Shown: positions 395-30,888 of the stretch, one piece after another
Position numbering within the stretch: the stretch's first letter is position 1
Layout: each line of letters begins with the position of its first letter
DNA from: Psammoneis japonica
Lineage: Eukaryota
Reading direction: 5' to 3'
Assembly (NCBI GenBank): GCA_008632985.1
Contig: QPGO01000066.1
Coordinates: 265,771-329,770 of the forward strand
DNA length: 64,000 bases
Notes under the pieces: generated by a model
The model's database searches: none
What the model was told of the DNA's origin: nothing
Seen by the model: the letters and a program-made list of their open reading frames with translations, nothing else
Translations under genes and position numbers: made by a program

Positions 395-535
395 GACGCG
401 TTCCAGGTCTAGGTGGGACCTCGCACTGCTGAACTGTGACATCGACAGTTTTTTGAATCACGTCGTATGTCGCGCACGTAGATTTCTACGTGATTTTTTC
501 GACATTTTGTGTCATTTTACGGTGCACTTGTTGAG
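395..535 (-). repeat. 141-bp inverted duplicate of the right end of the adjacent MITE (784-924)
   Basis: 395-535 is the reverse complement of 784-924 with one mismatch (C503 versus T, i.e. A816). Confidence 0.9.
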
Positions 536-924
536 ACGCGTTCCAGCCCTGGGTGGGACTCCGTGTGACATTGGGCCCGTAGAATTCTACGTGCGAGCTC
601 CGTAGTACGAGAATTTAATTGGTGGACATGTTTGTCTTCAACATCAAATAAACTGCCAAGTTTGTGGTACAATTATGCCTCTTGCCACTCGACGTTTTTG
701 CAAATGCGCCTGCCCTACGCGATTCTTAAGACATTATAGAATCGCGCTGTAACAAAAAATGTCAAAAGTTGTTGGACGGATCGCTCAACAAGTGCACCGT
801 AAAATGACACAAAATATCGAAAAAATCACGTAGAAATCTACGTGCGCGACATACGACGTGATTCAAAAAACTGTCGATGTCACAGTTCAGCAGTGCGAGG
901 TCCCACCTAGACCTGGAACGCGTC
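535..924. mobile_element. Young non-autonomous TIR element (MITE), GAC-terminal family, still TpA-containing
   Basis: TIRs GACGCGTTCCAGCCCTGGGTGGGAC (535) and GTCCCACCTAGACCTGGAACGCGTC (to 924). Termini are homologous to those of 4562-4957 and 17798-18179. Flanks TTGA/TGGA do not match, consistent with a rearranged junction. Confidence 0.8.
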
Positions 925-1545
925 TGGAGGCGTTTGTTGTGTCGCTGGGTTGGCAACAGCGACATGGAGACAAACAATTGCTGTCATAAAAACACCTTCT
1001 GCTCTCAATCCTTTTGATCAAACCTCGCCAACAGGAGCAGAACAAACAATTTCTTGGTGAGCATTGACAGCAGGACAGCTGCAATGACCAAACGAACGTT
1101 CATGAGATGCGCGACGTTGGCGCAACATGACAAAGAACATCAATGTTTTGCGACTTGCCCACGGTGCTGAAACCCTGGTTTTCTTCCATGCTGGCACCAT
1201 GCATCATCTGCCGGGATTGTGCGCTTCTTTTCGTTGGCTTTTTCTTCCATTTGGGTGGGCACGGAGGCGTTTGGGGCATCACTGCTGATTGGTGACGGCG
1301 ACATTGAGGTGCAATTGTTGTTGTCACAAAACACTTTCTGCTGGCGATCCTTTTCGCCAAATGTCAGCAACAGGAGTGGAACAAACAATCCATTGAAAAG
1401 GATCGCCAGCAGAACAGCTGCAACAAGGTTGGCACACAACAGACTGAAATGGGTTTCATCACGGCGATTGACACAAGAAGGGTTGCGCTCAACTCGAAAA
1501 AGTTGCTCAAGTGGATGGACGTACAGACTTGCGGGGGGTCTCCGT
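925..1545 (-). mobile_element. Truncated inverted copy of the TTAA-flanked element at 36217-37734
   Basis: The reverse complement aligns with about 36217-36801, including the terminus CGG(A/G)GACCCC..AAGTCTGTACG. The flank reads TTGA where the other copy has TTAA. Confidence 0.75.
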
Positions 1546-2394
1546 CAACTGGTTGCTGGGATTGACTGCAATCAACCTCAATGCAAACTCGACTGCAATG
1601 ACCTGATTGTCGGGAAAGAGCCGAGGTCACAATCACAATCAAGGAAGCAAAGTTGTTGGGCACAGACGAATTTTAAGATCTTCCAAGTGCTGCTCTGCTG
1701 ATCTTTGCCCCATCATTTTCCTTGGCAGTTGGCAGGAATGTCGACCCCAGTTCGGGAGTTGAAAGCAGCGCAACTTTGAGCCAACAGGTGCAGCGCAACA
1801 TTTTGTTGGCAACATCATTTGGTTTTTTGACAAGGCGGTGCAGCGGCACACAAGGCACCGCTCCGCCAGCATCATTTGAGGTTGTGTGTGTGCTGTTTGA
1901 GAAGGCAAGGAGCCATTGCAAAAGACCACTGCCAGAAAGAATCATTGGCTTGTTCACAGGATGAGAATTTTGTTTGCAGTTGTGGGCATTGTCATCTTCA
2001 TGAAGAAGCAGCTGTTGGAGATGGCATCCTCGGTGTGCACCCAGAGCTCAGCTTGAGACACTTTCCACTGTGACATCCCAAATGCTTTGATTTTCCCAGA
2101 GGTGAAACATGATTTGTGTGCCGGCACTTGTTGATGTCAATGAAAGACAATGTGTCAACCTGCGTTGGTCGTCACACACCAGCAAGAATCTTTTTCAGAC
2201 AAATGAGCAAAACAAAAGATCAGGAACACTCTGTGCAGATCCATGCAGCGCAAAAGTTGCTGATGCACTCCAGCTCTGGGTGGGACCTCGCACTGCTGGG
2301 ACACACAGCATTTTGTCGCCAATTGCGACGTTCCCTTGAATGAGTTGGACGATTTGTCATGAAAAAAGCCCTTTGAGACAAATTGCAATGTGCA

Positions 2395-2830
2395 GCCACT
2401 GACAAGAGTTGATGCATCATGGCAACGTGTTGCAGCCTTTAAATGTCACAAAGGGTGTGACAAAAATGACCTTTTGTCTGCATGCATGCTGCATTGTGAA
2501 TTCACAGCAGAGTGGTTCGTCGCAACCATTGGGCAGGAGGCCAGGGGTTCGAAACCCTGAGTGGGAGTTGTCTGCAGCAACGTTGATCACTGTCGAATGC
2601 ATGAAACTCTGTGCAGTTCTGTGTGTTCCTTCATGCGTGCCCACACTGTTCCGCCAAAACCATGCAGTGTCAGTGCATGTCAGCAAAGAGCCGCATGGAC
2701 GCGTGACACATGGGGAGGAGTGCAACACACTGCCACTGACAAGAGTTGATGCATCACGGCGACGTGTCACAGCCTTTAAATGTCACAAAGGGCGTGACAA
2801 AAATGACCTTTTGTCTGCATGCATGCTGCA
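2395..2830 (+). repeat. Pair of 99-bp direct repeats (2395-2493, 2732-2830)
   Basis: Both read GCCACTGACAAGAGTTGATGCATCA...GCATGCATGCTGCA. They differ at TG/CA and CG/TG sites. Confidence 0.85.
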
Positions 2831-2974
2831 AAATTTCAATCGTTGGCAATGAACAAGACAAAATCATCGCTCAATTGGTGGCGGCGTGTCCCATGCACAA
2901 ACGTTGTGTCAACTGCAGTGCCACATGATGAACTTAACTTTCAGCAAAGACTGCACTTTCTGATTGATGTTTTG

Positions 2975-3467
2975 TGGCGATTTTGCACGACAAATTTTGT
3001 CGGACATGACAAATTTTGTCAGACGTGCGACAAATTTTGTCAGACGCACGACAAATTTTGTCGCATCCGACAAACCCCGACAACATGCGACAAATGCTGA
3101 CAAACGCCGACAAGAGCCGACAAATGCTGACAAATGCCGACAGATGGACGTTTGTGACATGCCGACAACGCTCCCCAACATTCAGAAGTGCCCAGTTGCA
3201 TGGACGTGCTGTCTCCACCAGATTCGCCTGCCGTTCGCAAGAGAGCTGCCCACTGACAAAAGGTGCAGCACAGCAACACACACTGGCACATTCCGTTCCA
3301 CCACGCAGAAGCATGTGATGTTGTCCCGGTGCGGTGTGCGGCGTGCGGGGGGGCGTGGTTGTTTCGTTCGTGAGTGGTTGTGTTGTGACGTGTCACGTCG
3401 AGTCATGTCATGTGCCGACAAATTTTGTCGGATGTCCGACAAATTTTGTCGTGTGAATTTTCGTCGA
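2975..3467. mobile_element. MITE-like element with palindromic subterminal repeats
   Basis: GACAAATTTTGTC occurs four times at the left end (about 21-bp spacing) and twice at the right end, followed on the left by about 10-bp GACAAAYGCY repeats. Ends are inverted-similar; TSD unresolved. Confidence 0.65.
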
Positions 3468-3658
3468 TGACATCGATCGCCAAGTTCTGTCAATTGCCCC
3501 ACTCATTGAAACGACATCGCCAAAGTGCAGGTTGTTGGTTGTAAATGACATTGATCATTTTGTCGCTTGGTTGAACAATGTTTCTGTCCCGTTTTTTGCC
3601 AACCCAGACATTTTGTTGCAATTCACATCTTTTTGCAACAAATCATCAACTCGTTCAA

Positions 3659-4187
3659 CACGGGATCCGCGGATGCACCAGGGGAATCTGTGAAATGCGG
3701 GATGAAAGGGGAAAGGGGCAAATGTGAATGGTGGAAAAGTGACATGCCATTGTTTTACCTTGAGGGACCCTTCAGTCAGCCAAACTCGCTCATTGCCAAT
3801 TTGACCCTCGCAGGTCCGCCTTTTCGGGGTCATTGAATTGTGAGAGCAGATGCGGTCTCGAGAAATGATTTCATGTGTTTTGTTGGACCATTGACATTGT
3901 GCAAATCTGAAAATGACACACATGAAAAAAGTGAATTTTCAATTTTATATGACCTTCACAGCCACATGTGTTGTGTGACAATCAATCCTCAAGACGCGTC
4001 CCGTCTCACAACATTTTGACACCCCCCATGAGACGGACCTGTGATGATGGTCAGATGAGATGTGTGCATGTTCGGCTCACCAAAGGGACCCTCAAGGCAC
4101 AATGACAGCCCCTCACTTTCCCACCATTCCCATTTGCCCCTTTCCCCTTTCATCCCGCAATTCCCGGGTGCACCCGTGGATCCCGCG
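3659..4187. mobile_element. TTAA-flanked non-autonomous element with long (>100 bp) TIRs, piggyBac-like
   Basis: Left end CACGGGATCCGCGGATGCACC...GGGATGAAAGGGGAAAGGGGCAAATG is matched in reverse complement at the right end. Flanks are TCAA (3655-3658) and TTAA (4188-4191). Confidence 0.75.
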
Positions 4188-4561
4188 TTAAGAAAATGTC
4201 GCCAAATGCAACAAAATGCCGTGCGTCCCTGAGCTGTGACACAATCATTTTTTGTCATCCGTTGCATGTTTCTCACGCACATTTCTCCATGTTCTGTCAT
4301 AAAAAATTGCTCCACACTGCCTGTTTTGCAAAGCCAAGGGCTTTCTGTTGTCTGCATTCATGACAACAAAAATGTGCTGGGTGTGTTCTTTGATGTCTGA
4401 AGAATGTGCCCGGGCATGCTGCAAAGAATGCACTTCAAGTGTGGAGGAGGAGACACGTTCGCAAAATTGCCTCTTTTTCTGTTGGCGATCATTCATGTGT
4501 CCATTGCTTGACAATTTTGCTGCGGAGCTCGCACGCAGAATTCTGCGGGCCAAATGTCACA

Positions 4562-4957
4562 GACGCGTTCCAGCTCTAGGTGGGACCTCGCACCACTGGA
4601 CTGTGACACAATTGTTTTTTGTCATCCGTCGCACGTTTTGCACGCACATTTCTACGTGTTCTGTTGCAAAATGTTGTTCCACACTGCCTCTTTTGCGAAG
4701 CCAAAGGCTTTCTGTTTTCTGCGTTTGTGACAATAAAAATGCGCCGGGTGTGTTCTTTGATGTCTAAAGAATGTGCCCGGGCAAACTGCAAATGACGCAC
4801 TTCAAATTTGGAGGAGGAGATGCGTTCGTAAAATTGCCTCTGTTTCTGTCAGCGATCATTCACATTTTCATTGCTTGGCAATTTTACCACGGAGCTCGCA
4901 CATGGAATTCTGTGTGCCCAATGTCACAAAAAGTCCCACCTGGGATTGGAGCCCGTC
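4562..4957 (-). mobile_element. GAC-terminal MITE inserted into a related element
   Basis: GACGCGTTCCAG...TGGAGCCCGTC with TSD CACA (4558-4561, 4958-4961). The body is similar to the host segment at about 4230-4560. Confidence 0.85.
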
Positions 4958-7900
4958 CACAAAAAGTCCCACCTGGAACTGGAGCCCGTCTGCTGCTGTC
5001 ACAGCAGGTCTGCACAATCCCTTTGTTGGGCTTTCTTGCTCATGGGAAGTTTTGTTGGTTTGTTGAGTGACAAAACACATTGCTCAAAGAGGAAGGATGC
5101 AACAAGTCATTCTTGGTCAAAACAACTTTTAACTCAGACATCACGACAGGAATTTGTTTGAGAAAGGGCAGAGCAGTTGCTTGACAAAGAAGATTCTGCA
5201 ACAGGTTGCTCTCACGTCAAAATGACTTTAAGCTCAGACATCACAACAAGCATTCACTTTTAAAGGGCAACATTGTCCCAAGTTCGTGGAGCTGCATTGG
5301 CCCCACAAAGCTTTCATGGGACAACTGATGCAAGAGATTTTTGCTCGGGAGATTGGGGCACTTTCTCCACAGCTCCCCCAAAACAACCAACATGATGCCA
5401 TTGCAACCAGTCAGCTCTCACTTTGTCCAATGGTTCAGTGTCGACAATTGGTTGTTCATTGGACAGTCACCAAAACTAATTTCACATCGGCACACCTCCA
5501 TCAGGGTTGCCACACATCGTTCTCCATTGCTCACACACCACATCTGCTGTCGACTCATCACATGCATGACATTGCTGTCCACAATGGGAACAACCTTAAA
5601 AACCATTTTCCAGAATTGCTCAGTCGTCAACATCAGAATCAACAGCACCCAAAGTGGTGTGATGCATTTGGCAATTTTGCAAATGCCCAAACACCCCAAT
5701 GACTCAAATGACCAAAGTGACATCAAATTGCAACCGTAAAAAAAGTTGAAAATCCCCCAAATGACAACCTGCCTGGAAAACAAGATCATGAAGGCATGCT
5801 TTTCTCTTCACCAAATGAGCCGCCATGAACCATTTGCAATGAACTGGGAGCATCATAAAAAACTTGCATTGCTTTTTTTTGCAATGGTTGAAAAACCCCA
5901 TTTTTCATTTGGGGTCAGGCACTCATGAACCTGCCATTCCGGTGCAGCCAAAATCAGTGAAACGGCTCAATTTCTTTGCCTGTTTGTCAGACTGCGCAAT
6001 TGCTGTGCAATTGTGCAATCAACCAATTGCTGCTCTGCAGAGATGCAATCAACAACTGATTGCAATCTGATTGCCGCAGAAAACTTTGCAACTGGTTGAC
6101 ACTCAAAAAATTTGTTTGACATTTGAACAAGGAGGCTGTTGCAGTGATTTGCTGTTGAGTGCAAAAAAAACTGAGATTTTTCAGCACCCGCACCAGATCA
6201 TGCATGCATGCATGCACATCATGCAGTGCAATCAAAGCACAACAAATTGACATCTCAAGAACGCAGTCTGCTGTCATCATGCACTCACCTGATGCTGATC
6301 ACACAACAAATGGCAAGCCCAACACAAGTGAGCTTGTGATGCAACATGGCCTCCTGAGCAATCTCAGCTGAGGCAAAACAAAAAAAGTGAGACCATCAGA
6401 GAGGTGGCCAAAAAAGGTGAGCTGGTCACAGGGCATTGTTTGGCACTTTGACCTGGTGAGCGCACTCTTGGATTTGTTGCGCCAGCCCATGCTCGCTTGT
6501 TTTCATTTGACCTTTTTTCATTTGCACTTGACATTTTTGTTTGGCCTGCATGTGGTCATTGCCCCACCATGGCCAAAATGTGTGTTTTGTTTTTTCACAT
6601 TCCAACCCAAACGCAACAATGGTCACAACAGTCCGGCACCATTTCACTCAAATCTGTGAAGTTGCACTCAATTGTCATCACAGACATTTTCATCCAGCAT
6701 TTTTTCAAAAATGTCAATGAAAATGTTTTTGATTCTCAGGGGTGCAATTTTGAATCTGTGCCACTTTTTTCAAGTCAAGAGAAAACACCAAAGGGGGGGA
6801 GGGGCAGCTTCTTGCAATGGCGTGCAACAAAGCAGCATGGACACAGCAAGTGCAGGCAAACATGTGACACAAAAAACAATGAGCAAACATTGCAACTGTG
6901 GTGCAGAGACAGAGCAGTCTGAGCAAGCAGATGGTCAATGGCCAAAAGGCTGGCAAAGACACATCATCAAGGTGAGAGATTGTGTCAAAAGAGAAGTTTG
7001 TCTGAGCATTGCCCTCACACTTGGTGCAAAACAATTGGACAAAACAGGCACGCTGCACAAAAACAAGTTTTGCCGCAAGTTTCATTGGGGAATTGACATT
7101 GAGCAAGATGCATGGCTGACACCAGTGGTGCAACAAGAAAAGGAACAACTCTCAGCTCTGACAGACATTTCAAAAATGAGCTTGAGAGCATTGCCAACAA
7201 GGGGCTCATGGAAAAGGAGACAATGCAAAGAAGAGAAGGTGTGCAAGGTGACTCAAGTGCATTGCACCCCATCACAAAGAAGAAAAGGTGTGCAACGTGA
7301 CTCAAGCACATTGTGCCAAGCAAGCAACTCGAGCCCAGCAAAAGAAGGCATGAAAGATGATGCAGGATGCCAAGGAAGAGCAAGGGATGGTCACCAAGAG
7401 CTGACTTGGCTGATGGGAAGATTGGTGTGGAACACTTTCAGCCAGCCACAGAAAGCAAAGACCGCTTCACAAACTGGGATCTGGTCATCTGCCAGCGGGA
7501 GGGCCCTTGATGACATTTCCCTGGTGTGCTCATGCCTTGTTGAGGTGTGCAGGGTTTGCAGCATCAACAAGCTGTGGGGGCAGCACAGCTCTGGCTTTTT
7601 CTTCATTGGGCACTCAAGAAAAAGTGGGCACAAGCCATGCAGTGCTTCTTTTTTGGCGGCAATCCTCTCCCTCCTTTTGTTTAGATTGAGGTGCAGTGCT
7701 GTTCTTGGGGGGGGGGGGGGGCATTTGTTGCTTTTTTTGTCTGCAGCTGGTCAGCTCCTCTTGCACAATCCTTCTGCAGTGATGACCCGGTCAGGACTCC
7801 CCAAAGCGATGCTTGCCTGTGGGCTCTTGTTCTTGCACTTTTGGTCAATGACCCAAGCATTGTCGTTGCATCTCTGTGAAAACTTGCACTGCCAAGAGGG

Positions 7901-9333
7901 GCCTTGTCAAGCTTTTTTCAAGAATGAGATGAAGCTGTTGTGGGGAAAGAACACAATCACGCAAGGAGCTCAGCTTTGTGTCAAGAACAAATTGCCTGCA
8001 CAAGAGAGCAAACTGCAAAGAAGAACTGTCTTTCTTGCTGCTCATTTTTCAATTTGGCATTGCATGATCTGCCTGTCCCATCTGACCTCACTGGCACCTT
8101 TTTTGCTCTTGTTTTCATCTCTGGAGCACTGGCTTGATTTTTGGTGGTTGTTCAAGAGGGGGGTTGGATCTCACAACTGGTGCCTTGCCCCACACAAAGT
8201 TTGCAGCTGTGTTTCTCTGGACACGAACCAAGATTGCATGCCCATTCCACCACCAGTGCTGCAACACCAGGAGGCTGGGTTTCCACCTTCTCATCAAACA
8301 CTGGCCCAGCCTGTTCTTTGAGATCCCAGCCACACCAGCACCACGCATGGAGCTCACAAGAAGGGCACCCCACTTCTCGACACATCTGGAGCAACACATG
8401 TCTCCCACTGCTGCTGCTGGCCATTGCTTGCAGAGGCAAGCATTCTCTGGGGACTGTTTTTAACACATGTTTTTTTTCAATGTCTTGGCCACTTTGTTGC
8501 TGGCATGGATCCCAACTCAGCACATTTGTTGTTGCTCTGCTGCCACCTCATTTTGCTGGCATCAAGGATGATGATGGCAACTTTCTTGTTGAAGGCCACA
8601 GCAAGCCACAGCATTGTGCTTTGGATCCACAGGGACAATGTGGGGTTCCCAGTCTATTTTGTCATTCCTTCTCATCATGATGTTGGATCACTGGTGTGCA
8701 CATGGTGCTGATTGTGTTCAATCCCAGTGTGTGCTGCCCACGACACATGACCACACACCATCCTTTCAACTCATTGACTCTGGTGTTTTGACTGCCAGGC
8801 TGGATCTTCCTCCAACTGCAACCGCACCTCATGGTGTCACCAAAGGGAAGCACCCAACAATGCTTTGCCACCCATGGTCATGTGTCTCCATGCTGCACGT
8901 GCAACCAGCACAAGAAGCTTCTTCTTCTTCTTCTTGAAGAGGCCTGCCACACACAGCTGTTGTCAAGGACTGCAGCCAAAACACTGAGAAAAGTGAATGA
9001 AATGGTTGATGTCATCATCAAATCCATGGTCCATTTGGCTGTCAAAAGCAATGATGTGTGGAGTGGCCAGACAAGCAACAGTGGACATGCTCGCTGTTTT
9101 CTGTGCATTTCTTCTGCTGCCTGCTGGGCTGGCTCCCCCCTCCTGGCTCTGCCTTGAGTTGGCGGTGGTGTGGTCTGGTGACAATGTGGCCTCCTCCACA
9201 CTCTCATGCTTGCATCCATCTCAGCGTCGTCATCAATTTTCCATCATCATTCTGTTGTTGGTCAAAGGCATTCGGGCTGTAGACTGCATGCAAGCAACAT
9301 TTTTTGTTGTCCAGTTTTTTGTCACACACCAGC

Positions 9334-9911
9334 ATTCAAAAAATTTGAGCCAGTTTCCGCTTGCCACCAGCTGAGCGAGAAGCACGCATGCCGTGGTGCT
9401 GATGCATGTAGAGCGTTGAGTTTCGAATGCTTGGGACAGTTCTTTTCTTTTGTTCTGCACCCCACTGCACCGCCAATGGCCATGGCGTTGATCCCTGTCA
9501 TTCATTGGCAGCCCCTCTTCCAACACATCTGTTGCTTCCACCCAACTTTCCCGCCACCATCCAACATGTCCACCTCTGATCCTTCTTGTGATCATCTCAC
9601 AGCGGAGTTAGCTGCTGCTTGCCACTTGCTCCACTTCCCAAATTTCTTCCATTGAATTGAAAAAAAAACCGTTCGATCGGGCCACAAATTCGGCTTGTGG
9701 CAGCTCTTCCAGAAAGTTGTTGCAAGCCTGTCTTCGCAGTTTAGTCTCTGCATTGTCCATTGTCTGTAGAGCATTCATGGTGCTTTGCTGTCGCTCTGAT
9801 TGTGCAACTGTGCTCCTGTGAGAAGTGGTGGTCTGCTGTCAGTTGCGACACTGCTCTCTAGCTAGAAGATGCCTCACGACTCACTCCTTCCGTGTGTGTG
9901 ATGTGTTGCTG
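9334..9911 (+). pseudogene. Decayed, internally deleted duplicate of locus about 18592-21328 (5' of HA gene joined to 5' of HNH-like gene)
   Basis: 9334-9618 aligns to about 18592-18890. 9619-9907 aligns to about 21034-21328. Confidence 0.9.
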
Positions 9912-9912
9912 C

Positions 9913-12900
9913 TTGTGGCAGCACAGGGGGAGGGACAGATGCATCCACCTCCCACCGCACGCAGCCTTGAACGAACCTGAATGCCAGTGGCATTCTTTGC
10001 AACTCGTCACCGCCTGTCGAGGCCGCAGCAGTGGTTGTAACTTTTTGAAGAAGGGAGCGACACACACCAACCTTTCTCCCTTCATGGCTGCTGTCCCTCC
10101 TGTGGCAGCCGGTGGAGCACCTCCGGCTGACGTGTTCCAGTCCCAGGTGACGCACAAAACGACAATCGGATTTCGAACACAACTCATGTGTGTTTTGCTG
10201 TGTGAAGCATTTTAACAAAAATGCTCAGACGGATTGACTTTTGTGGGCTTCTGGAGCATGCACATTTAAACAGTTTTTTTGAGGGGAATTCAAATCCTCA
10301 TGGGATGTGTGTCACAAACTTCCTCAGCAGACTCAATGCTGATTGCACGTCAGCAGATTTACACTGAGATTTTCTTGCAGGTGGAAAACCCACCAAGTGG
10401 CATCGTAGAAAGACACGCTCAGGTGACATCCAAATGACGGCAACATTTTCGCCGAAAATCATCCGTTTTGTCACGAGTCTTTCAACGCAATGAAAAACAC
10501 AGATGGCACAATGACAATGACATTGCAACACTCACACGAGTCTTGTCAGTGTTGCAAAACATTCACATTTGTGTGAATCTACACTTTTGGTGGTGAAAGT
10601 TTGATCGCAAGTTGGGGACCGCGCAAAAATCGCGCAAATGTCGTTTTTGTGCACGATTTGGTTCACGTGCGGCTGGAACACGTCGGCTCCCCCAAAAACA
10701 TGCCACGACAAGTGGACAAGTCAAGGAGATCACTTGGGTGGGGAGCATGCGAATTTAATCCGTCGGTGCGACACCACCATCGCTGCTCCCGAGCCGGCCA
10801 CCACGCCACTCGAGCACATCATCGACTCGAGCGACGTGGCACCCAAGGCCTTTTTGGCGCTGGTGTGGCAAGGCACAGGTTGTCGCATCACCTGCATCCA
10901 CCGGCCCTCTGTGTGCATCAGAGACCCGGTGGAGACCTTGCCATGGGATGGACGCATGTTTTGTTTTCACGGAGATGTCCTGCCGGGTAATTTTGTTGCC
11001 ATTCACAAGATGCCCAACACTTCGTTCGACATTGTGGGGCCTCAAATGGTGCCTGCTGTGGCCAACATGGCCGCCCTCGAAGGCACCTTGGTGGATGACA
11101 ACGACTTGACACCTCCGCAGACCGATGGCGCCCCGGACACTGACACAATCTACGTCCGCCGTCTCGCACAAGTGCCCCACGCCTGCCTGCATCCAGCGCT
11201 GACCCGGGATCTCACCCCACTGCAAGCCTGGTGGGAACCAGCAGGAGCAATCCAAAATGACGGTCGCGCAGGGGACTTGAGTCCTCTCATCGACTGGTTG
11301 CGCGCGGCCCTCACCACCAACACTGCGGTGAATCCAGATCCAGTCCATTGTCCAGGTGACCGCACCACCGCCTTGCCGCCACTTGCGGTGGAAGCCAGAT
11401 TGCAAGAGCATCGTTGGCATGCATTGTTGCAAGACCTGCCCGCCTTGGATTCAACAGCCGTGGACAACACCGACCGCATGCCAGCCTTCGCTGACATGGT
11501 CCGAGCCGATGCAGTGTGCACGGAAGCAACATGCTCTGCAGCCACAGCCGCAGCCGCAGTGCCTAAAACTCTGGTGGAAGCCTTCCCACAGACCACACCC
11601 GTGTGGCTCTTGCTGTTGAGCGCACCAGACGATGCAGCCTTGCCCACGCTGCTCCACGCTTGGGCCAATCTCGTGTTGCACCTGCAGTTTCGAAGGAGCT
11701 GCACGAGATGGCATTGCAAGGGAAGGTTGCACCTCACGTGCACCAAGTGAACAACCCAACCGCCGGTGTGTCACCTTTCACCTGTGGCTTCTTCCTTGCT
11801 GGACAAGGTTCTGCCGTGCAAGTCTGGGCCGAACGCTGCGACCTTGCGTTGGCAGGCAACCTGACACCTGCTGTTGCAGAACAAGAGGAATTCCGCACCA
11901 AGGGTGCACAGCTGCCGACATCCACTTGCCATTGTGGAAGCATGCTCCAAGCCACCAGCTTGGTCTTGGATGTCATCCAAGGCTCAGACCACCCCCATGC
12001 TGTGGCTTTCCGGCAGTTTTGCTTGGAAGACTGGCGGGACATGGTCGACTTGCTCGAGCAATCCAGAGCCCTGCTGGCAGAAGGAAACGTCCTTCCCCGC
12101 ATTTGCCGCGAGGTGCAGATGCTCGTGGGGGTCTGCCTTTGCAGGCTCATGCAAGGCGGGGTGCCCCGGGTGCCCGACTGCACCGCAGTGGCGCACAAGG
12201 TGCCACATGGGCAATTCTCCCTGCTGGCACAGTTGCCCCATCATTTGCTTGGCCAGCCAGACAGGGCGATCAATCCCCAGATGAGCTCAACCAGCGCCCC
12301 CAACAGTGGGACCACCTCTGCACCAGCTGCTGCCGCTGGGCGTCGCGACCCCGGTGCGGCCGTCACACTCAAACAGCACCAACGCTCGAACTCCCCTGTG
12401 TGCCGTGCGCCTCGGCAGGCGTTGGGGTCATGTCGCCAGCCGCGCCATCACCAAAATGCTCCCAAGTGTTGGCCGCCGCCTTGCCACATCTGGGATTCCT
12501 GCCCAAGGACGTCACTGCACGCAGCCTCCGAGCCGGTGGTGCCGTGGCACTTTTGTGCACCAAAGTAGACACCGACATCATCCGTCTTGTCGGATCTCAA
12601 CGAAAATCCTGAACCACGGCAACTTCACGTTACTCCCGGGTTCCGACATCCCCCCCGTTGCACAAAATGTCATCAATCAAGCCCAACCCCTTGTCACTTG
12701 TCGGCACTCCAAGAGTGTCAGATCGGAGGCGGTCTCTGTTGCTGGTGAGCCAAAAGAGGGCAAGAAACCCCAGCAAAGCGCTGACACCACCAACTGCCGC
12801 CTCCCAACTGCAGTGGGACGCACCCCCCAGCTGCGTTGGTGGCAAACAGCCATTGTGGCAGCACAGGGGGAAGGACAGACACACCCACCTCCCACCGCAC

Positions 12901-13146: not shown

Positions 13147-13339
13147 CGGCAAGATGATGCAGTGTCGTCATTGACGGCCAGACCGAATTTGTGTTTTTGA
13201 ACCATTTTTTGAATTTCTCCTCATTGGAATTTGGAGCCTGCCCCAGAAGTGGCTGATGTCACCACTTTGCAGCAAAATTTTCAGGGATTCCATTGTGCAT
13301 GCTTTTTCCTCGGCTTGATTTGTCTGATTGTCTGTTTGC

Positions 13340-19723: not shown

Positions 19724-19982
19724 CTCATGATGGATGTTTCTACGGTAAGGGGTTCTAATTCATAGGCAATGCCGCAGTATTATTCAGTATTAGGGGTAGA
19801 GAGTAGGGGTTCTAATTGATTATAGAAGATAAGGCAGACATCGTTGGTTAGATCCATCCTTGCTTATCTAACGACGTTATCGACGTAAGAAATTGGTCGA
19901 ACAATGTGTATTGTGCAAAAGGCCGTCGTCTTTTTGTACCGACAAAAACCAAACTTGATCGTCGTCAATGTTTGCCACAATC

Positions 19983-21194: not shown

Positions 21195-21328
21195 GGTGCT
21201 TCACTGTCGCTCTGATTGTGTAATTGTGCTCCAACGAGAAGTGGTGGTCTGCTGTCTGTTGCGACGCTACCGTACTATAGAGAGTAGAAGATACTCACGA
21301 CTCCCTTCCGTACCGTATGTGATGTGTT

Positions 21329-22311: not shown

Positions 22312-22879
22312 GATGTGTTGCTGTCCCCACTCCCAGCACGAACCATGCTGTGGTTTGCCGCGCGAAATCACGAATGCGCGCGATTCCTGCCCCGGACCAT
22401 CAAGTGGTTTGCGGCAAGCCAAAAACGAACCGACAGACGATGGGCAAAAGTGTAAAAGACAATGAGACATCTACAATGACATTGCATCAGTCGACACAGC
22501 AACGTCTGTTTGACAATCTGTGTGCTTTGTTTTGGTGGTTTACTGTGCTCTTAAACGTCTCCGTACTTTCACTGTCTTGTTCATCGTGAGCATCATTTTT
22601 CTGATTCAATTTTGCATTCGACCCTCAGGCGCAAATTACACGCATGTTTCTAAGAGAGTCTGCTGGGTTTCTTCCTCAATTGAGGCAGCAAAATTGTCCT
22701 CAATTGAGGTGGGCAAAATGCGCCCGCAGACAGAAAACAACACACTGCTTTAGCAAACAACACGAGAGACAACAATGTTCTGTTGCGCAAAAACCAACCA
22801 GAGTGCTCGACTGAGAGTGCATCAGACACAAGAGGAAGCAGAGTCAGCAAGTGACAGAGGGCAGTCAACACATCAATTG

Positions 22880-23200
22880 CCTGCTCTCTTGACCATGAAA
22901 ATGTCTGCTCCTCTCACACTCCCAAACTCAGAAAAATGCCAAATCCTGTCCACTCGACACACCAACTGTGCTCTTCCAGCTCAGCGTCAGGCTGAGGGCT
23001 TCCCGATCCACTGTCCACTTCATGTCAGAACAGCCACCACTGTCACCAAGCTGTGCATGACATTCAAAGTTTGTTGGCGTGGCAATTCCCTTTCCCATTC
23101 TGACATGCGAGGCAGCAACAATTGCCAACAAAGATGACTTCATTGTTGGCATGGAAGAGAGGATGAGATGAGCGAGACTCCCATGCTTTTGTGGCATCAA
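22880..23200 (-). pseudogene. Decayed copy of the 5' end of the DOMON/monooxygenase gene (35636-35947)
   Basis: Colinear alignment by eye. All 6 TpA of the source segment are gone. Confidence 0.92.
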
Positions 23201-23888
23201 GAATTTTGTTGGCCACCTGTTGCGTTGCACAATGCTGCGGCAGAGTTGCACTCAGGGACCTTGCAACAGCCTTCTTGATGCTCTTGTTTTCTTTTGAATG
23301 TCCGTCAGTTGGCGAATTGCTGAGCAATTCAATGATGTTGCGGGGACAAATGATGAGCAATGTTTGTTGGAAGAAGCACAATGGACAGTGGACAATGCCG
23401 GTGCCAGTGGGCCTTTTGTGCACATGGAGTGGAGCAACACTGCACAGAGGTTCACACAAGAATTTGGTGAGCATGTTTGTCTGTGGAAGAAAATTCCTTG
23501 GATGTGAGAAAAACTGCAGGAAATGGGAGTCAGTCATTTCCCCCCACAGCGTTGCACTGTGAACGCTCTTTCTCTTGCATCTCCAGTTGCATCTTGTGGA
23601 GTTGAGCATCAGAAGTGCTGACATTGTGTCAGAAGAACTGCAGCCACTGGCAACAAAGAAGTGCAACAATGGCACATTTCCAAAGGGTGATCCACTGTGG
23701 CAGTGCCCCTCCCTCAAGCAGAGATTTGCCGCTCAACACAGAGGAGGAGATGCGGCAGAGGCCATTGGGCAATTGTGATGGAGCCTGAACAACTTTTGTT
23801 TTCCTGCATTGTGCAATGACTTGCAAAGCACCACCACTCATTGTGCCACACACAAGTGCAAACAAGCATTTTGTTGCTCCACCTTCCT

Positions 23889-24069
23889 GGGCAACCACAG
23901 CCGGCACCCTGGAGCTGGGTGCCAGTGGTTGCGCAGCTGCATGTCAGGTTGTGGGTGGGATCAAGCTGAGTGCAAAAATTTGGGTGACCACAGCTGGCAT
24001 GCTGGAGCTGGGTGTCAGTGGTTGCGTGGTTGCATGTCAGGTTGTCTGCGGGGCAAAGCTGAGTGCAAA
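23889..24069. repeat. 93-bp tandem duplication
   Basis: ACCACAGC..CTGGAGCTGGGTG..AAGCTGAGTGCAAA starts at 23894 and 23987. Confidence 0.8.
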
Positions 24070-26802
24070 CATGGAAAAACAATGGTGTGTTTTCTTGTCA
24101 GTTGTGGTTGACTCTTGCACAAATTGTCAAATCTAAAAGCACAAGCACTGAGCAGGGGGCAACTCTCTTTTTTGTTGCACTGCAAGACTGCCAGCACTTG
24201 AAGCAGCCATCCTTCATGACCTTTTGCAGCTCTTCACAGCTGGAAAAGGGAGCCAGGAGTCATTGGCAAAATCACCTCTGAAATTTTCAAGGCTTCATTT
24301 GGAGATCATGATGACACTGCCAACAATGCCAACTCAGCTCTTTGGGAGTGAGCGCAGCAGAGATCATTGGCAAAAGAGCTCATCAATGTTGCTTCTGTGC
24401 AAAGCTTGGCCAAGCTCTTGTTGCCCTTGATGCTCTTGGCATTGTCAGACCAAAAAGAGGACAAAGTCATTCCCATCAAACCCTGCAATCTGCAGCAGTC
24501 TGACTTTGTTGGCATTTTCTAAGACTGCAAACAGCGCCAGCAGGGTGGCAATCTGCACTTCTGTGATGGGTTGGATGTGAGCTGATGCAGCGCACATTCT
24601 CTCCACTGTGGGCAGCACACTTTGATTTTGAAAAGCACATGGTTGAAACAGCAGCAAGCTTGTGCAGCTCACATGGTGGACAGCCCTGCTGGTGCAACCC
24701 AAGCAACAAGTGCCGCCATCAACAAAATGGCTGTTGCAGCAAATCATCAAGTTGCTCCAAACACAAGCCACTCAATGCTTCAAAAGGCTGAAATTTTTTT
24801 GAAAGTTGTTAACCTCAAAAAAGGTTGAAGCTGGCTGTGCTTTGTTTTTGGAAATTGCTGTGGAGTTGCACTTGTGAAAGAGGCACAAAGAACTGTCAGA
24901 TCAAAGTTTTGCCCATTTGTTGCAACTGTTTGTGTGTCATCCACAGCCTTTTGACTTGCCTCACTGGTGCCCCAATGTCTCAGATGTTTTCCAGCACCAT
25001 GCAACGTGCAAATGAGCACTTTGGTCAGCTTGTGTGTTGGCTGCATGCCAAGTGCATTTGTCTCAATTTTTGCTGTCAAAAACTCAAAATGTCTCATCTG
25101 CACTCCAAGGCAAACACTCTTTCAAAAAAAGCAGATTCTCAACAGTGCAACAAATGCTGTCCTCAACACAACAATGAAGATGACAGTGTGCAGGTGCAAT
25201 GGCTGACTTCCACCACATGTGGGGGCAAAAAACGTGAGCTGTGTCTCTTTTGTTCAGAGCTTGTGTGGGACAGCTTCAGCAAGCTTGAAGCCAAATGTTT
25301 TGCACCCACTTCTTGTGCCATTGTGACCTCACTCCAAAGTCATTCAAAGAAAAAATGAGGATGTCATTGCACCCTCCATGTCCAAATTGGTTGCTCCACA
25401 TGGCCGCTTCTGCACCTTGCATGTCCACTTTGGTGACACATGACCAACTTTCTGTGGTGCACAAAGATGTGCAAAATCCTGCAAGCAAATGAAAAAGGTC
25501 AGTTTTGGCATGAGAGGTGCTGCTGCAACTTGCTGTTTGCTTCACCACATGTGCTGTGCCCAATCTGCATCATTGTCTGGGGCCACTTCCACAATTGCAA
25601 AGCCAAAAAAAGTGGTCAAAATGTCACCACAGGCTGTGGCAAGGTGTGCCAAAAGCACAACATGTCACTCCATGAAGAGCTTGGTGTGTTGAGTCATTTT
25701 CACCTTTCTTGCCACATGATCCTTTTTGTCCCTGGTTTGAAAGTTCTTTTTGTGCAAGGCAAAGAACTCACTTCTTTTAGATTTGTGAGTTTGCAAGCCC
25801 CCCCTGAAAATGATGGCATGTTTGAGCAGCTTGAAGCTCAATCAGAAGCTGCAAACTCACAAGGACAAACACAAATTTGATCTCCAAATCAACTGCCCTT
25901 GTGTCAGGGTGCTTTTAATGCAACAAAAGCAGGGGGTCAAAAGCAGCAAATTGCTTGAGCACACTCTCCAGTTGTTTGCACCAGTGTGCAAAAATGTTCA
26001 CAAATGAAAGAGACTGCATTTTGGCTTTGCAAGTTTGTTCCCAAGCTGAAAACTGTGACAAAATCTGTGTTTGCATGCCAAACTGCAATTTTTTGCACAG
26101 CTCAGCTCACACACAGCTTGGGCATGTTGTCAGCTCTCTGTCATGATCCTGGCACTGCCGTGCTGCACAAAATTGTTCAACCTGCCTGCCAGAAGTTTTT
26201 TGGGCTTTTCCAAGCTCAAACCAGCTGAAGCTGTTGTTCTTGAATGCTGGGCTGAGATGGAGGTGGTCAACTGGCTCAACATTCCAGGTGAGCTCCAAGC
26301 TGCAGTGCATCAGTTTTTTGCCATCTGCATGGCTCTGGAGGTGCTTGAAGGCCTTCTTTGTCATGGAGCATTTGATTGCACCAGGAAGGGGGCTTCAGAG
26401 ACTGCTGCTCAGCACTGGGTTCAACAACAGCTGTTGGATGGTGCAGAGCATTTTGCCAAATCCAGGGGGGCATCGGTTCATTTTTTTGCTGCCATCTGGC
26501 TTGCTTCTGAGAGAGTCTGTGAGGCGACAACTTTGGGGGTGATTGCAAGCGTGCTTGCAAAAATGGTTGATGCAAGGACTCACAATGGACAGTGAGTTGG
26601 TGAGTTGGGGCCCTGGCTCCCTGACTGAAAGAGGTGGGGGGCTGTCTCGGTCCTTTCTCTTCTCTCTCAATTTTCTTGAGGATTTCACGTTCGTGAGGAC
26701 CAGGATCTTGATCGACAGCTCTGTTGCTGTTGACACCAATTGCTTCAGACGATCGATGTCACCCAATTGTTTGCTTCATTTTCATGGTGTGCACGCTTTG
26801 AC

Positions 26803-27075
26803 GTTGCAAGAATACAGAGCCATTCACGGGAATGCCAATGTGCCTCAGGAATACAACGCGGATGTTGCATTGGGGCGGTGGCGTATGAAGCAACGATCTC
26901 AGCACAGCTGGCGTCGTCGTGGTCAACTTACAGAGGATCGGAGAACCTGGGATTTTTTTGGTAGGTCGGTCAACAAGAATAACAAGGAAAACGAACAAGC
27001 GCAAGTGTAACTCATGATGGATATTTCTAATCTCTGCGGCGCGGGGTTCGAATTTTAATAGGTAATGCAGTAGTA
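26803..27075 (+). pseudogene. Fragment of HA-domain gene 3' end and 3' UTR (copy of about 19499-19790)
   Basis: LQEYRAIHGNANVPQEY..DVALGRW matches the last HA repeat. It has small deletions and a frameshift, and shares TAACTCATGATGGAT after the stop. Confidence 0.9.
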
Positions 27076-27137
27076 TTCAGAATTATGGATGGAGACAACG
27101 CATGTGCCGTAACATGTATATATAGAATGAACAGTTG

Positions 27138-29471
27138 TTACCGCATACCAGCACTTGCCGACGGCTCATCCGGAGCATGTTGAATCACAACGCCTCGCAT
27201 TTGCCAAAAAGCCATCTCACCGGTATGAGGGAACGTGTTGTTATTGCGCTTGATGCTCATTAGAGTCGTATTGGCAGACAAGAATTGGGGTGGCGGTAAT
27301 CCGTCCTCGTTGCCCCACAAGCACGGCGGAATGGCCAGAAAGCCCCGTTCCTTGTATATTTCATAGTCGCTGTCTCCAACAATTGGTTCCGAATGACAAA
27401 GCAATTGTCCAGTGTCGGCATTGTACAATTCCATAGACAGACACGATGGTGCGTGGCAGTGTGGTCCGGCATAAATCAACTCAATACCAGCCGCACTGCG
27501 ACTATTCGAGCCGGTACACCATCCTCCACCATCGTTTTGAATGGGACAGTCTTGCATCATGTCGCGAACATGCCATTTGGCTGTAAGGGTATGGACGCAT
27601 TGGTCTGTAGGAATATCTTGAGTACACTGCGGAATGTCATACTCGCCCGCAAAGGTTTCGGTTTCCCAAAAGAAGCGTACCAAATTCAGGTGTGACGCTT
27701 TGGACGTGTCCGATGCTTGGTATTCTTGATAGTAAAATCGAAACTTGAATCGGAGCTCCAGATATTGATCCGGCCAGGGTATGTCTTGTTCCTTATCCAG
27801 TAGAGATTTGCCGTCACGACAACAGGCAAGACCACCCGCGTAGGTTTGGATTTGACAGGTGGGATTTTCTTGTGCAGCCACGTCCCCGCGGCACCGACCC
27901 TTGTTGGAAAAGACATTGCCACCGAGTGTTCCACCCAATACTCCAGCGGAACAGATGCGTGTGGGTTTATCGACAGACAGAAACGTCAATTGCGAGGGAG
28001 AATGTCCACAGTGTTGTTTAAACTCCATCCCGCAGCCTCGAGCCGCAATCATGGCAAGCGGAACGTTTGGGTCCATCTCAAAGCGACCTTTTTGGGCCCG
28101 ATTTGTAGTCGTTAGTATGACGGTGCGGTTCAAACCTCCATTTGTAAGCTTGTTGGATTGCACATGCATTGACGTTTCGACAAGACGCCCTGGTCCATGA
28201 AAGTCAAGCTTTCGTTCCGTCACCTTGTCACCTTGAACAACAATCGCATACGGACCGCCTTGGGGACATTCGTCCGTCACCAAGAGACTGTGCAAACACA
28301 TGGTATTGGTCCCAAACGCAACGCCAAACCACTTGTCGGCTGGACCAACCAAGGTAACGTTCATGTTGTACTCGTCATCGTCACTGTGGCTGGAAAGCAC
28401 AGCAGTCACATTGACTTGAGCTCCACTGTAGGCAATCCAAGAATCTGCCAACTCTTCCTCCTCTTGACGTGCCTCCACATTTTCGTCTTCAGAAGTCCAC
28501 TTGACATCTACACTACCGTCCGAATGCTGTGTAACTGTACAGAATGACGAGTCGGATGATGCGGAATGGCTTTCTTCATCATGATTGCGAAAGTAAGAGG
28601 CCGATAAGGCTCGCTGTGCACCGGCAAAGCACTCTGTAGCATTCTCCACCGGACCAATACAATCATCGTGACTGCCGTCCGTGTTGTTTAGAATATACGT
28701 AGTCGACCACTTTTTTTCGAGTGTATCACTACAAGGGCACTCCAACAAACCACTAAATCCTGCCAGTTGTGGCGGGATACGACTTGCCCTGGGGAGTGGT
28801 GCACCGTCCGGCGTAAATTTGGAAGTGTTGGAGTTTCGATTCCAAGTGTCAATGCTCATGGGGTTGAATTGAAAATGAGTCGGAGACTCCAACAACTGTG
28901 CGTATCCTTTGGGATAGCCATGGTAGGAGAGTCGGAATTCGCCCCCGTTGCCTTCCGAAAACACAGTCATGCGAGGCATGCTTTTCGCGTCTTGTAGAAT
29001 AGGTGAGGATGACGACGTTGTTGTCAAGTAGCTTCCATGGTGACCAGCATTACGATGGATGTTCTTATTCTCAACAAGCTTCGTCTTGTTGCTAAAGAGA
29101 TATGCGATATAATGATGATTATAAGACCACGTGATTGGAACGCTTGTTTCCCGATGATTTCTCGCATCCACTCGAACTTGATCCACTTCGTAACCCGTGA
29201 TTGCCATGACTTTGTCTTGAAAGCGAGTTACAACGTCATTAGGAATTGGAACAGGCTCATGCATTCTCCAGTGGACTTGGGAATAGAGAGTTCTAATGGG
29301 CTTGGAATACACCTCAAAGTACTCGTCCGTGTAGACAGTACTGTATTCGTCGTCTCGCGCATTTGCAAGTTTGTAAGGCTCCGAAATCATATTCTTGTGA
29401 GGAGCAGCAGCTGCCAGCGCTGTTGGTAACGATGACAGCGCAAATGAAATAAGCAACGTCGTCAACATCAT
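27138..29471 (-). CDS. Secreted SURNod19-like / copper-monooxygenase-like protein with DOMON-like segment
   Basis: Signal peptide MMLTTLLISFALSSLPTALA; YNHHY; DOMON-like VTLVGPADKWFGVAFG; C-terminal HCHAP..LYNADTGQLLC.S.P..G...HTGEM. Intronless ORF. Confidence 0.75.
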   Translation of the reverse strand: MMLTTLLISFALSSLPTALAAAAPHKNMISEPYKLANARDDEYSTVYTDEYFEVYSKPIRTLYSQVHWRMHEPVPIPNDVVTRFQDKVMAITGYEVDQVRVDARNHRETSVPITWSYNHHYIAYLFSNKTKLVENKNIHRNAGHHGSYLTTTSSSSPILQDAKSMPRMTVFSEGNGGEFRLSYHGYPKGYAQLLESPTHFQFNPMSIDTWNRNSNTSKFTPDGAPLPRASRIPPQLAGFSGLLECPCSDTLEKKWSTTYILNNTDGSHDDCIGPVENATECFAGAQRALSASYFRNHDEESHSASSDSSFCTVTQHSDGSVDVKWTSEDENVEARQEEEELADSWIAYSGAQVNVTAVLSSHSDDDEYNMNVTLVGPADKWFGVAFGTNTMCLHSLLVTDECPQGGPYAIVVQGDKVTERKLDFHGPGRLVETSMHVQSNKLTNGGLNRTVILTTTNRAQKGRFEMDPNVPLAMIAARGCGMEFKQHCGHSPSQLTFLSVDKPTRICSAGVLGGTLGGNVFSNKGRCRGDVAAQENPTCQIQTYAGGLACCRDGKSLLDKEQDIPWPDQYLELRFKFRFYYQEYQASDTSKASHLNLVRFFWETETFAGEYDIPQCTQDIPTDQCVHTLTAKWHVRDMMQDCPIQNDGGGWCTGSNSRSAAGIELIYAGPHCHAPSCLSMELYNADTGQLLCHSEPIVGDSDYEIYKERGFLAIPPCLWGNEDGLPPPQFLSANTTLMSIKRNNNTFPHTGEMAFWQMRGVVIQHAPDEPSASAGMR

Positions 29472-30644
29472 GGTAAAATGGTAGGAATAAAAGTGTGGAG
29501 AGACAAGAACAAAAAGATGTGATTTGAAGGCTCGTGTCAGTTGACCATGTTTGCAGCAAAAAATGAGCAGACAAGAATCTTGTGTAGAATTTGTACTGAA
29601 AGAGTCTGTCAATCGTCAGTGCGCTTGGGTGTTCATGGCCACATTCGGTGAGCCGCTGAACTGAGCCGACGCCTGCTTGTTCACAACGCACTGATGGGCA
29701 GGCTTCTTTTCAGCCAGCAGCAGATGATCACATGATGGATGTCATTTCACAAGTGCCATTGCACAACAATTGGTGTCATTTGTGCACTAATGCTGATTGC
29801 AGCAGGAAAACTGCTGAGCCACCACACTCTCCCCTCTGTGTCAATTCTCGAGGAGCTGCCCTGCCCCCGCACTTTTGCACGTTTTTGTGCCCAGTGCAGC
29901 ACACGCAACCACATCTCAGCTCCACTGTGACAACATTTCAGGAGCCACCCTCAAACCCTTTTCCAACACCCCTGCTCTAAAAAAAGTGCTGCTGGTGGGG
30001 CCATTGCTCCACCCCGTTGTCACGCAACACACCAAGTGCAGCAGCCAACATCATGACGTCATTTGTGAGCTTTCACACTGCTGTCCTCATGTGCTCCATC
30101 GTGCCCCCCCCCCCCCCCCAGGTGTTGTCATGGACACCAACACTGTCAACTCCATCACCAACAATGCAAAAACACCTGTTGCTGTCAATGATGACACTGG
30201 CGCAACAGGCAACATGGTTGCTGTGGCCATTGACTGGAAAAAATGCCTGCTGCAGGTGTCATCACAAACTCCAGGGCTGTTCATGACATTGGCAATGAAA
30301 CAATGCTTGTTCCTCCTTTTGATGCCAGTGCCCCTGATGCAACAGGCAGCAAGCCATTTCTGTGGCTGTCAACTTGAAAATGTGCAGCCAAAACAAAGTG
30401 CCATGGTCTCACACTCCTTTTCTCATGATCCATCCTCCTGCAGGCAGCCCTGCCATGAAAGTTTGCAGGCACTAATTGGCAAGTTGTGCCCAACCCCTTG
30501 TGCCACTTGGGCCATCCACTGAGCAGTGCTCTGGCTGAGTTGTGAAACTTTTGGCAGCACACCAGCCCAAGCAATTGTCTGTGTGCTGTGCTTCAGCAGA
30601 GATCTGGTTTGAAGAGACATTGGCTCCTTTTCCAAGTGCCAAGT

Positions 30645-30888
30645 GAATGCACTCCAAATGCAGGTGGAAATCCATGTGACACCAGGCCTGTGGAATTCCA
30701 TGTGCAAGCTCTGCAGCAAAATTTGTAAAACAACAAGACTTGGGCTTCACAAAACAGGGAGTGTTTTGAACAACTCTGCAGGAGAGGAGCACACACAGAA
30801 ATGCACATGAGAAACATGCAACAGATGACAAAAAGCTGTTGTGTCACACATCAGTGCTGCAAGCTCCCACCCATGGCTGGAATGCATC
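30645..30888 (+). mobile_element. Highly decayed GAC-family MITE remnant
   Basis: Contains GCCTGTGGAATTCCATGTGCAAGCTCTGCAGCA (homolog of 575-607) and ends CCCACCCATGGCTGGAATGCATC. Confidence 0.6.

Follow-up and report, generated by a model that had tools for sequence, protein, structure and literature searches.

The question raised by this locus is in which order, and by which process, repeated DNA loses the dinucleotides TA and CG. The window, i.e., the whole stretch of 64,000 nucleotides analyzed here, originates from the diatom Psammoneis japonica (GenBank assembly GCA_008632985.1, contig QPGO01000066.1, positions 265,771 to 329,770) and contains five copies of one 33-nt motif that differ in the TA and CG they hold. 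A preliminary description of this DNA had proposed that TA is ancestral in the motif and is lost before CpG. Our evaluation of the complete window leads to a reading which, taken as a whole, we consider very likely: repeat-rich blocks appear to have undergone region-targeted hypermutation of TpA, with TA being ancestral and lost first and CpG decaying more slowly.

A search of the window with a degenerate pattern returned five matches to the motif, compared with 0.00 expected from 100 dinucleotide-preserving shuffles. Coordinates, strands, and readings of all five 33-mers agree with those reported before, namely copy 1 with four TA, copies 2 and 4 without TA and with every CG kept, and copy 5 without either (Table 1). 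The observation that one site reads CA in one copy and TG in another holds in the alignment: where copy 1 has its four TA, both outcomes occur among the other copies and CG never does. A fifth, upstream site (CCTAGG) reads TG in copy 1 and CA in copies 3-5, and keeps TA in copy 2 as well as in the outer arm of the element at 395-924. A degenerate 30-nt pattern scanned against public metagenome, viral, and genome contigs gave 0 further matches. The state of each motif copy mirrors that of its block: copy 1 is situated in an island that retains TA, copies 2-4 in TA-free DNA with CG kept, and copy 5 in CG-poor DNA. The five copies are a small sample of a mosaic extending over the whole window. 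This dependence on the surroundings had been missed in the preliminary description; the TA-free share of the window amounts to about 51%.

The mosaic was resolved by segmentation with a two-state hidden Markov model, the edges being checked in 200-bp bins, and comprises six TA-free blocks. Over the whole window, the observed/expected ratios (o/e) of dinucleotides are 0.31 for TA, 0.67 for CG, 1.50 for CA, and 1.51 for TG. The TA-free compartment (32,882 bp) holds 96 TA (o/e 0.05) and shows an o/e of 0.40 for CG, 1.26 for the GC dinucleotide, and 1.78 for CA/TG, with CA (1.77) and TG (1.79) being roughly equal. The corresponding values of the normal, gene-containing compartment (31,118 bp) are 0.56 for TA, 0.97 for CG, 0.99 for GC, and 1.21 for CA/TG, while the G+C content is near-equal in both (48-50%). 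Block edges are sharp, the number of TA per 200-bp bin changing from 0-1 to 6-16 within 200 bp or less. In single 1-kb bins, the CG o/e decreases down to 0.06.

Repetitiveness was measured in positions 1-6000 by alignment of the contigs of run X1 (7,763 pieces at ≥80% identity). Summed contig depth was at least 169 in every 200-bp bin vs about 57-68 for single-copy contigs, and positions 401-1000 reached 1.1-2.1e5; this sampled TA-free DNA is therefore repetitive. Recognizable targets within the TA-free blocks are elements resembling miniature inverted-repeat transposable elements (MITEs), a split-repeat element, and fragments of host genes. Among the 57 open reading frames (ORFs) of at least 130 aa scanned in these blocks, 56 were without a Pfam match, and neither viral nor transposase domains were detected in 61 ORFs scanned from them. 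Almost all of the TA-free ORFs encode no tyrosine. All six frames remain open for long stretches, e.g., in a 553-aa tyrosine-less ORF at 6660-8318, because TAA and TAG stops are nearly absent. For genome annotation this means that TA-free DNA provides long spurious ORFs, which would mislead gene finders.

Table 1. Coordinates of motif copies, elements, decayed gene copies, and TA-free blocks in the window
Feature	Position	Strand	Characteristics
Motif copy 1	575-607	+	4 TA (580, 588, 603, 606) and 4 CG in the 33-mer; within young TA-retaining element
Motif copy 2	4518-4550	-	TA sites now CA, TG, CA, CA; CG kept 4/4
Motif copy 3	4885-4917	-	3 TA converted, 1 kept; 2 CG kept
Motif copy 4	17838-17870	+	same sequence as copy 2 (0 TA, 4 CG)
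Motif copy 5	30686-30718	+	0 TA, 0 CG; surrounding block CG o/e about 0.1
Young MITE-like element	395-924		530 bp; inverted arms of 141 bp (395-535, 784-924), 99.3% identical
MITE-like element	2986-3453		22-nt inverted termini, 95% complementary
Split-direct-repeat element	9913-13146	+	A1 9913-10048, B1 12722-12852, A2 12853-12988, B2 13016-13146
Decayed copies of 18596-18852 and 21032-21328 (parents in normal block)	9340-9907	+	TA kept 1/11 and 4/9
Decayed copy of 35636-35938 (5' end of DOMON/copper monooxygenase gene)	22880-23190	+	TA kept 0/6, CG 5/15
Decayed copy of 46670-46925 (Xi-class glutathione S-transferase gene)	39530-39787	+	TA kept 0/7, CG 1/15
TA-free block	1-305		from segmentation
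TA-free block	988-18363		59 TA in 17,376 bp (o/e 0.05), CG o/e 0.47, CA/TG 1.73
TA-free block	22652-26812		TA o/e 0.02, CG o/e 0.19
TA-free block	29595-33061		TA o/e 0.03, CG o/e 0.20
TA-free block	36386-42493		TA o/e 0.04, CG o/e 0.35
TA-free block	62536-64000		TA o/e 0.09, CG o/e 0.66; continues past window end

Such a mosaic could in principle arise from a neutral bias against TA and CG acting on the entire genome, with purifying selection keeping TA in genes and no targeting involved. The close fit of normal islands to ORFs (e.g., island 26813-29594 vs ORF 27141-29615) would be expected in this case. Within the gene block at 42.5-62.5 kb, however, spacers without long ORFs have a TA o/e of 0.72 (297 TA in 5,062 bp), exceeding that of the long ORFs (0.54), which would therefore rule out a neutral bias masked by selection in genes. 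Moreover, the non-coding element at 395-924 keeps 24 TA amid TA-free DNA, and gene islands beside TA-free blocks (TA o/e 0.50-0.60) equal the large gene block (0.58). Taken together, we regard an untargeted bias as very improbable and region-targeted loss as the explanation to be followed.

The direction of the changes can be read from four gene-to-fragment pairs, in which the intact parent gene was taken as the ancestral-like state. Parental TA is found as TG at 15, as CA at 9, as TA at 5, and as CG at 2 positions of the fragments, while parental CA/TG never became TA. Stricter counting of the same pairs gave 5 of 33 TA and 23 of 60 CG kept, with 65 of 905 other sites differing. A>G changes are concentrated at TpA (28/66 vs 26/474 at other A, p about 1e-14) and C>T changes at CpG (32/117 vs 11/405 elsewhere, p about 1e-14), the latter focus being the one characteristic of methyl-CpG decay; C>T at CpA occurred at 5 of 164 sites. 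The fragment of the glutathione S-transferase (GST) gene illustrates the consequences, as four tyrosine codons are changed to histidine or cysteine codons, and a stop codon and a gap are present. Two of these four tyrosines (RYxLYV) align to tyrosines of two Xi-class GSTs with solved structures (3ppu and 6gc9); therefore, TA is ancestral at those sites also by outgroup. A>G is raised outside TpA as well (26/474 vs 11/405 for C>T outside CpG, p=0.04), the highest value being found at ApA (12/152), and 3 of the 33 TA of the parents have become CG in the fragments. Both observations point to a weaker off-context activity able to create new CpG.

Copies located elsewhere in the genome point in the same direction. 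Among 40 examined of the 682 differences between the window and such copies, 14 sites have TA in other copies where the window has CA/TG, TA being the depth-weighted majority at 8 of the 14, and the reverse (TA in the window, CA/TG in other copies) was not encountered among these 40. Four of the 14 sites are located inside the young element at 395-924 (621, 627, 630, and 634), and the sole mismatch between the arms of this element is CA (position 503) vs TA. The claim of an ancestral TA is thus supported by gene fragments, outgroup tyrosine codons, the arm mismatch of the young element, and the 14 sites in other copies; TA was changed in situ after insertion, on both strands.

Two readings of opposite polarity have to be measured against these data. 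If the variable sites had been CpG ancestrally, methyl-CpG deamination would have given CA or TG by one transition each and the TA of copy 1 would be secondary, which is at least in line with the CpG decay occurring in the same blocks. Against this, none of the five motif copies has CG at the four TA sites, even though copies 2 and 4 keep 4/4 of their true CG. The parent genes read TA at the corresponding sites, including the outgroup-conserved tyrosine codons, TA is the majority at 8 sites among those listed for other copies, and deamination in CpG context alone cannot turn CG into TA. An ancestral CpG is consequently very improbable. A process like fungal repeat-induced point mutation (RIP), by which CpA is turned into TpA (PMC2621366), could alternatively have made the TA of copy 1 and of the genes by C>T at CpA, the TA-free state being original. 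This is contradicted by the polarity from gene to fragment. In addition, the TA o/e of copy 1 and the genes (0.5-0.6) is ordinary rather than raised, and it is the genes which are intact and have conserved residues on TA codons, while the broken copies are TA-free, with a stop codon and gaps in the GST fragment. We therefore consider a RIP-like origin of TA extremely improbable.

A technical origin was also taken into account, in which modified bases of heterochromatin are misread during base-calling or assembly so that TA is displayed as CA/TG. Long-read data are prone to systematic miscalls at modified motifs. Nevertheless, contigs of run X1, assembled from k-mers, reproduce the TA-free stretches 5299-5655 and 5628-6000 (357 and 373 nt) with 0 differences at single-copy depth (about 57-68), TA-free copies also bear indels and ordinary substitutions, and the four outcomes are the same in motif copies 2 and 4 despite flanks of about 80% identity, as inherited mutations would. 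Even with X1 possibly being the source sample, an artefact is highly unlikely to account for the pattern, and we continue with TA as an ancestral state changed by mutation.

The relative order of both losses becomes apparent on the level of 500-bp bins (128 in total). Of 62 bins with a TA o/e <0.15, 31 have a CG o/e <0.3, 19 are in the range of 0.3-0.6, and 12 at ≥0.6; among the 56 bins retaining TA (o/e ≥0.3), 55 have a CG o/e of ≥0.6, one is in the intermediate range, and not a single one has lost CG (<0.3). Bins that keep TA and have lost CG were thus not observed. The gene fragments likewise kept TA less frequently than CG (p=0.03 for the strict counts given above). Split direct repeats are expected to be identical at insertion, so that their differences arose afterwards: those of the element at 9913-13146 differ by CA/TG at 2 sites, TA/CA at 1, TA/TG at 1, CG/CA or CG/TG at 6, and other bases at 4, and they share CG/CG at 10 sites and TA/TA at 0. 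A control tandem repeat located within a normal block shows differences at 3 positions of pyrimidine-purine (YR) type vs 13 others. The proposed faster loss of TA is hence borne out by three lines of evidence (gene fragments, split repeats, and the 12 of 62 TA-free bins with high CG). It is also no by-product of CpG decay, as had been stated, since loss of TA is a change from A:T to G:C and loss of CpG one from G:C to A:T.

Expressing the TA:CG rate ratio as the ratio of minus log fraction kept, we obtained a value of about 2 in the gene fragments and of at least 6 in the split repeats (2 of 8 identifiable TA copies kept; per-copy CG loss 0.19). Also CpG loss differs among loci, as three fragments that do not differ in background divergence (about 0.08) kept 8/15, 5/15, and 1/15 of their CG (extremes p=0.014). 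TA saturates quickly, hence the bimodal distribution. Of the two-stage clock for transposon age suggested in the preliminary description, the order stands (TA first, then CG), while the calibration does not, as the rate ratio varies by locus; the clock is therefore only qualitative. It can serve as an ordinal age marker for insertions, leading from TA present over TA gone with CG present to both gone.

The sequence context adds information on the TpA step. Survival of TA relative to normal blocks (strand-symmetrised) depends on the following base, with 0.21 for TAA, 0.10 for TAG, 0.04 for TAC, and 0.02 for TAT, and TGC is raised 1.96-fold in TA-free blocks. In 94 TA-to-CA/TG events from 43 pairwise, non-independent alignments, the base after the edited A is C in 45, T in 21, G in 17, and A in 11 cases. 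A further preference for T[A]CG (23/85 edited-strand vs 5 unedited-strand contexts) is not taken as established, being dominated by one repeated hairpin (TCTACG, motif) and by non-independent pairs. TG and CA outcomes are clustered in runs along the strand, with 13 switches vs 18.2 expected (P about 0.02), which is a hint only, given that the pairs are non-independent. The combination of a 5' T, a preferred 3' C or T, and a protective 3' A can be used as a yardstick for candidate deaminases.

These observations show the following sequence of events. A:T>G:C transitions on either strand change the TpA of a targeted block into TpG or CpA in situ, until the TA o/e has fallen to 0.02-0.09. CpG of the same blocks decays more slowly and at a locus-dependent rate to TpG/CpA, so that CA and TG are left as almost the sole YR dinucleotides in the end state. 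Neighboring genes and short spacers are spared, and young insertions such as the element at 395-924 still carry TA. The TpA step is most likely enzymatic, i.e., adenine is deaminated to inosine and then read as G, the responsible nucleic-acid deaminase being one that would need a 5' T, favor a 3' C or T, and disfavor a 3' A or G. For the CpG step, ordinary deamination of 5-methylcytosine would suffice. Targeting is probably directed toward silenced repeat chromatin and not toward sequence duplication as such: the parent genes of the four fragments are unaffected, which would favor a locus- or chromatin-based mechanism over one based on homology.

The same targeted change of TpA to CpA/TpG could also proceed via thymine, with an oxidized or otherwise modified T (5-hydroxymethyl- or 5-formyl-uracil, of TET/JBP type) mispairing with G or being mis-repaired. 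Modified thymines do mispair with G, and the DNA of dinoflagellates contains hydroxymethyluracil preferentially at TpA. As A>G on one strand equals T>C on the other, both routes are indistinguishable by sequence, in agreement with the near-equal excess of CA and TG. The context on the adenine side (5' T, 3' C/T) rather resembles the U-A-C core of TadA-type enzymes (PMC11472039), and an ADAT2-like candidate was found by the authors of a study on Bigelowiella natans discussed below; neither point is decisive. Overall, we judge the thymine route to be unlikely, while keeping it in appreciable consideration next to the deamination of adenine, which we prefer.

Several points weigh against our interpretation of the window. 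The motif sites at 575-607 are outside the 40 of 682 differences listed for other copies, pairwise event counts are not independent since copies share ancestry, and the T[A]CG excess is driven largely by a single hairpin. The repetitiveness of TA-free DNA was determined for positions 1-6000, and most of this DNA, with ORFs almost exclusively devoid of Pfam matches, is not demonstrably transposon. Run X1 may be the assembly's own source sample, making the sequence check not fully independent. Finally, the action of a deaminase and the targeting by chromatin are both inferred from the mutational footprint.

The elements of the window differ in age and architecture. The one at 395-924 shows the features of a MITE (terminal inverted repeats, small size, non-coding, and high copy number) and holds 24 of the 30 TA in positions 1-2500, though being embedded in TA-free DNA. 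Its depth (summed contig/k-mer) is 1.1-2.1e5 vs about 60 for single-copy DNA, and no ORF of at least 110 aa was found inside. Concerning a target-site duplication, the flanks show no direct repeat, and many contigs first match at 535-540. For contigs of other copies, 535-540 and 4561 are frequent start or end points of the match. This suggests a composite structure, with an inner unit starting from about 536 within a palindromic outer unit having related termini. The second MITE-like element (2986-3453) contains six internal tandem units of 10 bp as well as palindromic CGACAAATTTTGTCG modules. The CG-rich and almost TA-free composition described before for a MITE at 2975-3467 holds, with 0 TA and 41 CG in 2964-3467 and a CG o/e of 1.19 in bin 3001-3500.

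In the split-direct-repeat element, B1 abuts A2 and the repeats are 92.6% (A1/A2) and 95.4% (B1/B2) identical, enclosing about 2.7 kb of internal sequence with a G+C content of 0.55-0.61. Split direct repeats of the order A1...B1-A2...B2 define the Ngaro/PAT-type layout (PMC4157794). An Ngaro ORF had been assigned to this region. The Ngaro/PAT-type repeats are indeed present, as is the CG-rich and nearly TA-free composition (10-13 kb; TA o/e 0.05-0.13, CG o/e 0.65-0.85), while neither reverse transcriptase nor tyrosine recombinase was detected, the long frames of 10.6-13.2 kb being without Pfam match and ORF 10605-11747 without homologue among 8,000 scored candidates. The element may be non-autonomous or heavily mutated. 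Directly upstream, 9340-9907 holds adjacent copies of the segments 18596-18852 and 21032-21328, which are separated by 2.2 kb in the parent locus; it resembles a segmental duplicate that has decayed and from which the gene bodies were deleted.

Genes of the normal blocks were assigned by Pfam as encoding a protein with three helicase-associated (HA) domains, a DOMON/copper monooxygenase, a Xi-class GST, a TIR-domain protein, IF-2B, and a pyridoxal phosphate (PLP) enzyme of Cys/Met metabolism. The best named relatives of the PLP enzyme are all diatom proteins (Cyclotella 72%, Stephanocyclus 73%, Seminavis 74%, as well as Thalassiosira, Fragilariopsis, Odontella, and others), with the top match overall at ≤77% and non-diatom matches at ≤61%. 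The three HA domains lie in one ORF within 18605-19720, and another one is located at 26543-27007 at the edge of a TA-free block; the segments 19484-19802 and 26791-27095 are paralogous with 78% identity. The long ORF of the TIR-domain protein (56572-58800, minus strand) contains a 100% identical tandem duplication of 307 bp (56866-57172 and 57172-57478), being either very recent or a duplication of the assembly. Two minus-strand ORFs (27141-29615 and 33133-35922) have their 5' ends within tens to a few hundred bases of the start of a TA-free block (29595-29615 and 36386), so that the DNA on the promoter side of both genes consists of hypermutated repeats.

Comparison with known systems places the TpA and the CpG component apart. 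Decay of transposons by deamination of methyl-CpG shares the C>T changes at CpG, and whole blocks show a CG o/e of 0.19-0.20, but it explains only the slower second component and cannot remove TA. Fungal RIP is the functional analogue, sharing transition hypermutation at a specific dinucleotide by which repeats are disabled and sharp compositional islands remain beside normal genes. In contrast to RIP, where C>T at CpA raises TpA and AT content, TpA is destroyed here at a G+C content staying at 48-50%. RIP hits both copies of a duplication, whereas the parent genes of the four fragments are unaffected here.

Enzymes of the TadA/ADAT and ADAR families convert A to I with a 5' U required or preferred, and likewise the changes observed here match T[A], the preferred base at +1 being C. 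ADAR prefers a 3' G, which is not matched, as G is disfavored here. These enzymes act on RNA in nature, whereas the change reported here is fixed in genomic DNA and on both strands. Editing by bacterial TadA takes place within a core of U-A-C-G (PMC11472039), and we regard the possible resemblance to its U-A-C part as a lead and not as a demonstration.

The closest counterpart is found in the rhizarian alga B. natans. In a mutation-accumulation experiment described in a preprint from 2026 (Mettrop et al., bioRxiv 10.64898/2026.01.13.699255), the two integrated viral regions acquired 231 mutations, of which 230 were A>G or T>C, all at TpA, at about 6e-7 per site per generation. It further lists 124 genome-wide clusters of 1-kb windows depleted in TpA and enriched in CpA+TpG, gives a Rho of 0.45 for a region from nucleocytoplasmic large DNA viruses (NCLDV), and proposes an ADAT2-like deaminase; the text mentions neither CpG (0 occurrences) nor MITEs. 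In the literature, we found no report of TpA-targeted hypermutation in diatoms, the B. natans preprint being the sole report found. The A>G/T>C changes at TpA, the normal composition of the adjacent genome, and the depletion of TpA with enrichment of CpA/TpG are common to both systems. They differ in the host lineage, being a diatom (stramenopile) here, and in the targets, which are MITE-like, split-repeat, and unclassified repeats as well as host-gene fragments instead of integrated viral DNA. The footprint is more extreme here, with 51% of the window at a TA o/e of 0.05, and is coupled to CpG decay. Furthermore, it is seen here as a footprint, while mutation was observed de novo in B. natans.

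The footprint looks like that of a targeted mutational defence, and our findings are best filed as the addition of a second eukaryotic lineage and of transposon-type targets to the recently described TpA-targeted hypermutation. This suggests that TpA hypermutation is neither rare nor virus-specific, and a TA o/e near zero with doubled CA/TG provides a compositional marker of silenced DNA in such genomes. A broader proposition, which we put forward tentatively and hold to be possible rather than probable, is that diatoms have a deaminase-type TpA hypermutation defence as in the rhizarian alga, whose constitutive action on transposons under silencing, on MITEs, and on captured fragments of genes would erase TA and, together with methyl-CpG decay, leave only CA/TG as YR dinucleotides. 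Such a defence might be ancient and widespread in the stramenopile-alveolate-rhizarian (SAR) supergroup, with a TadA/ADAT-like effector, and would represent the reverse mirror of fungal RIP.

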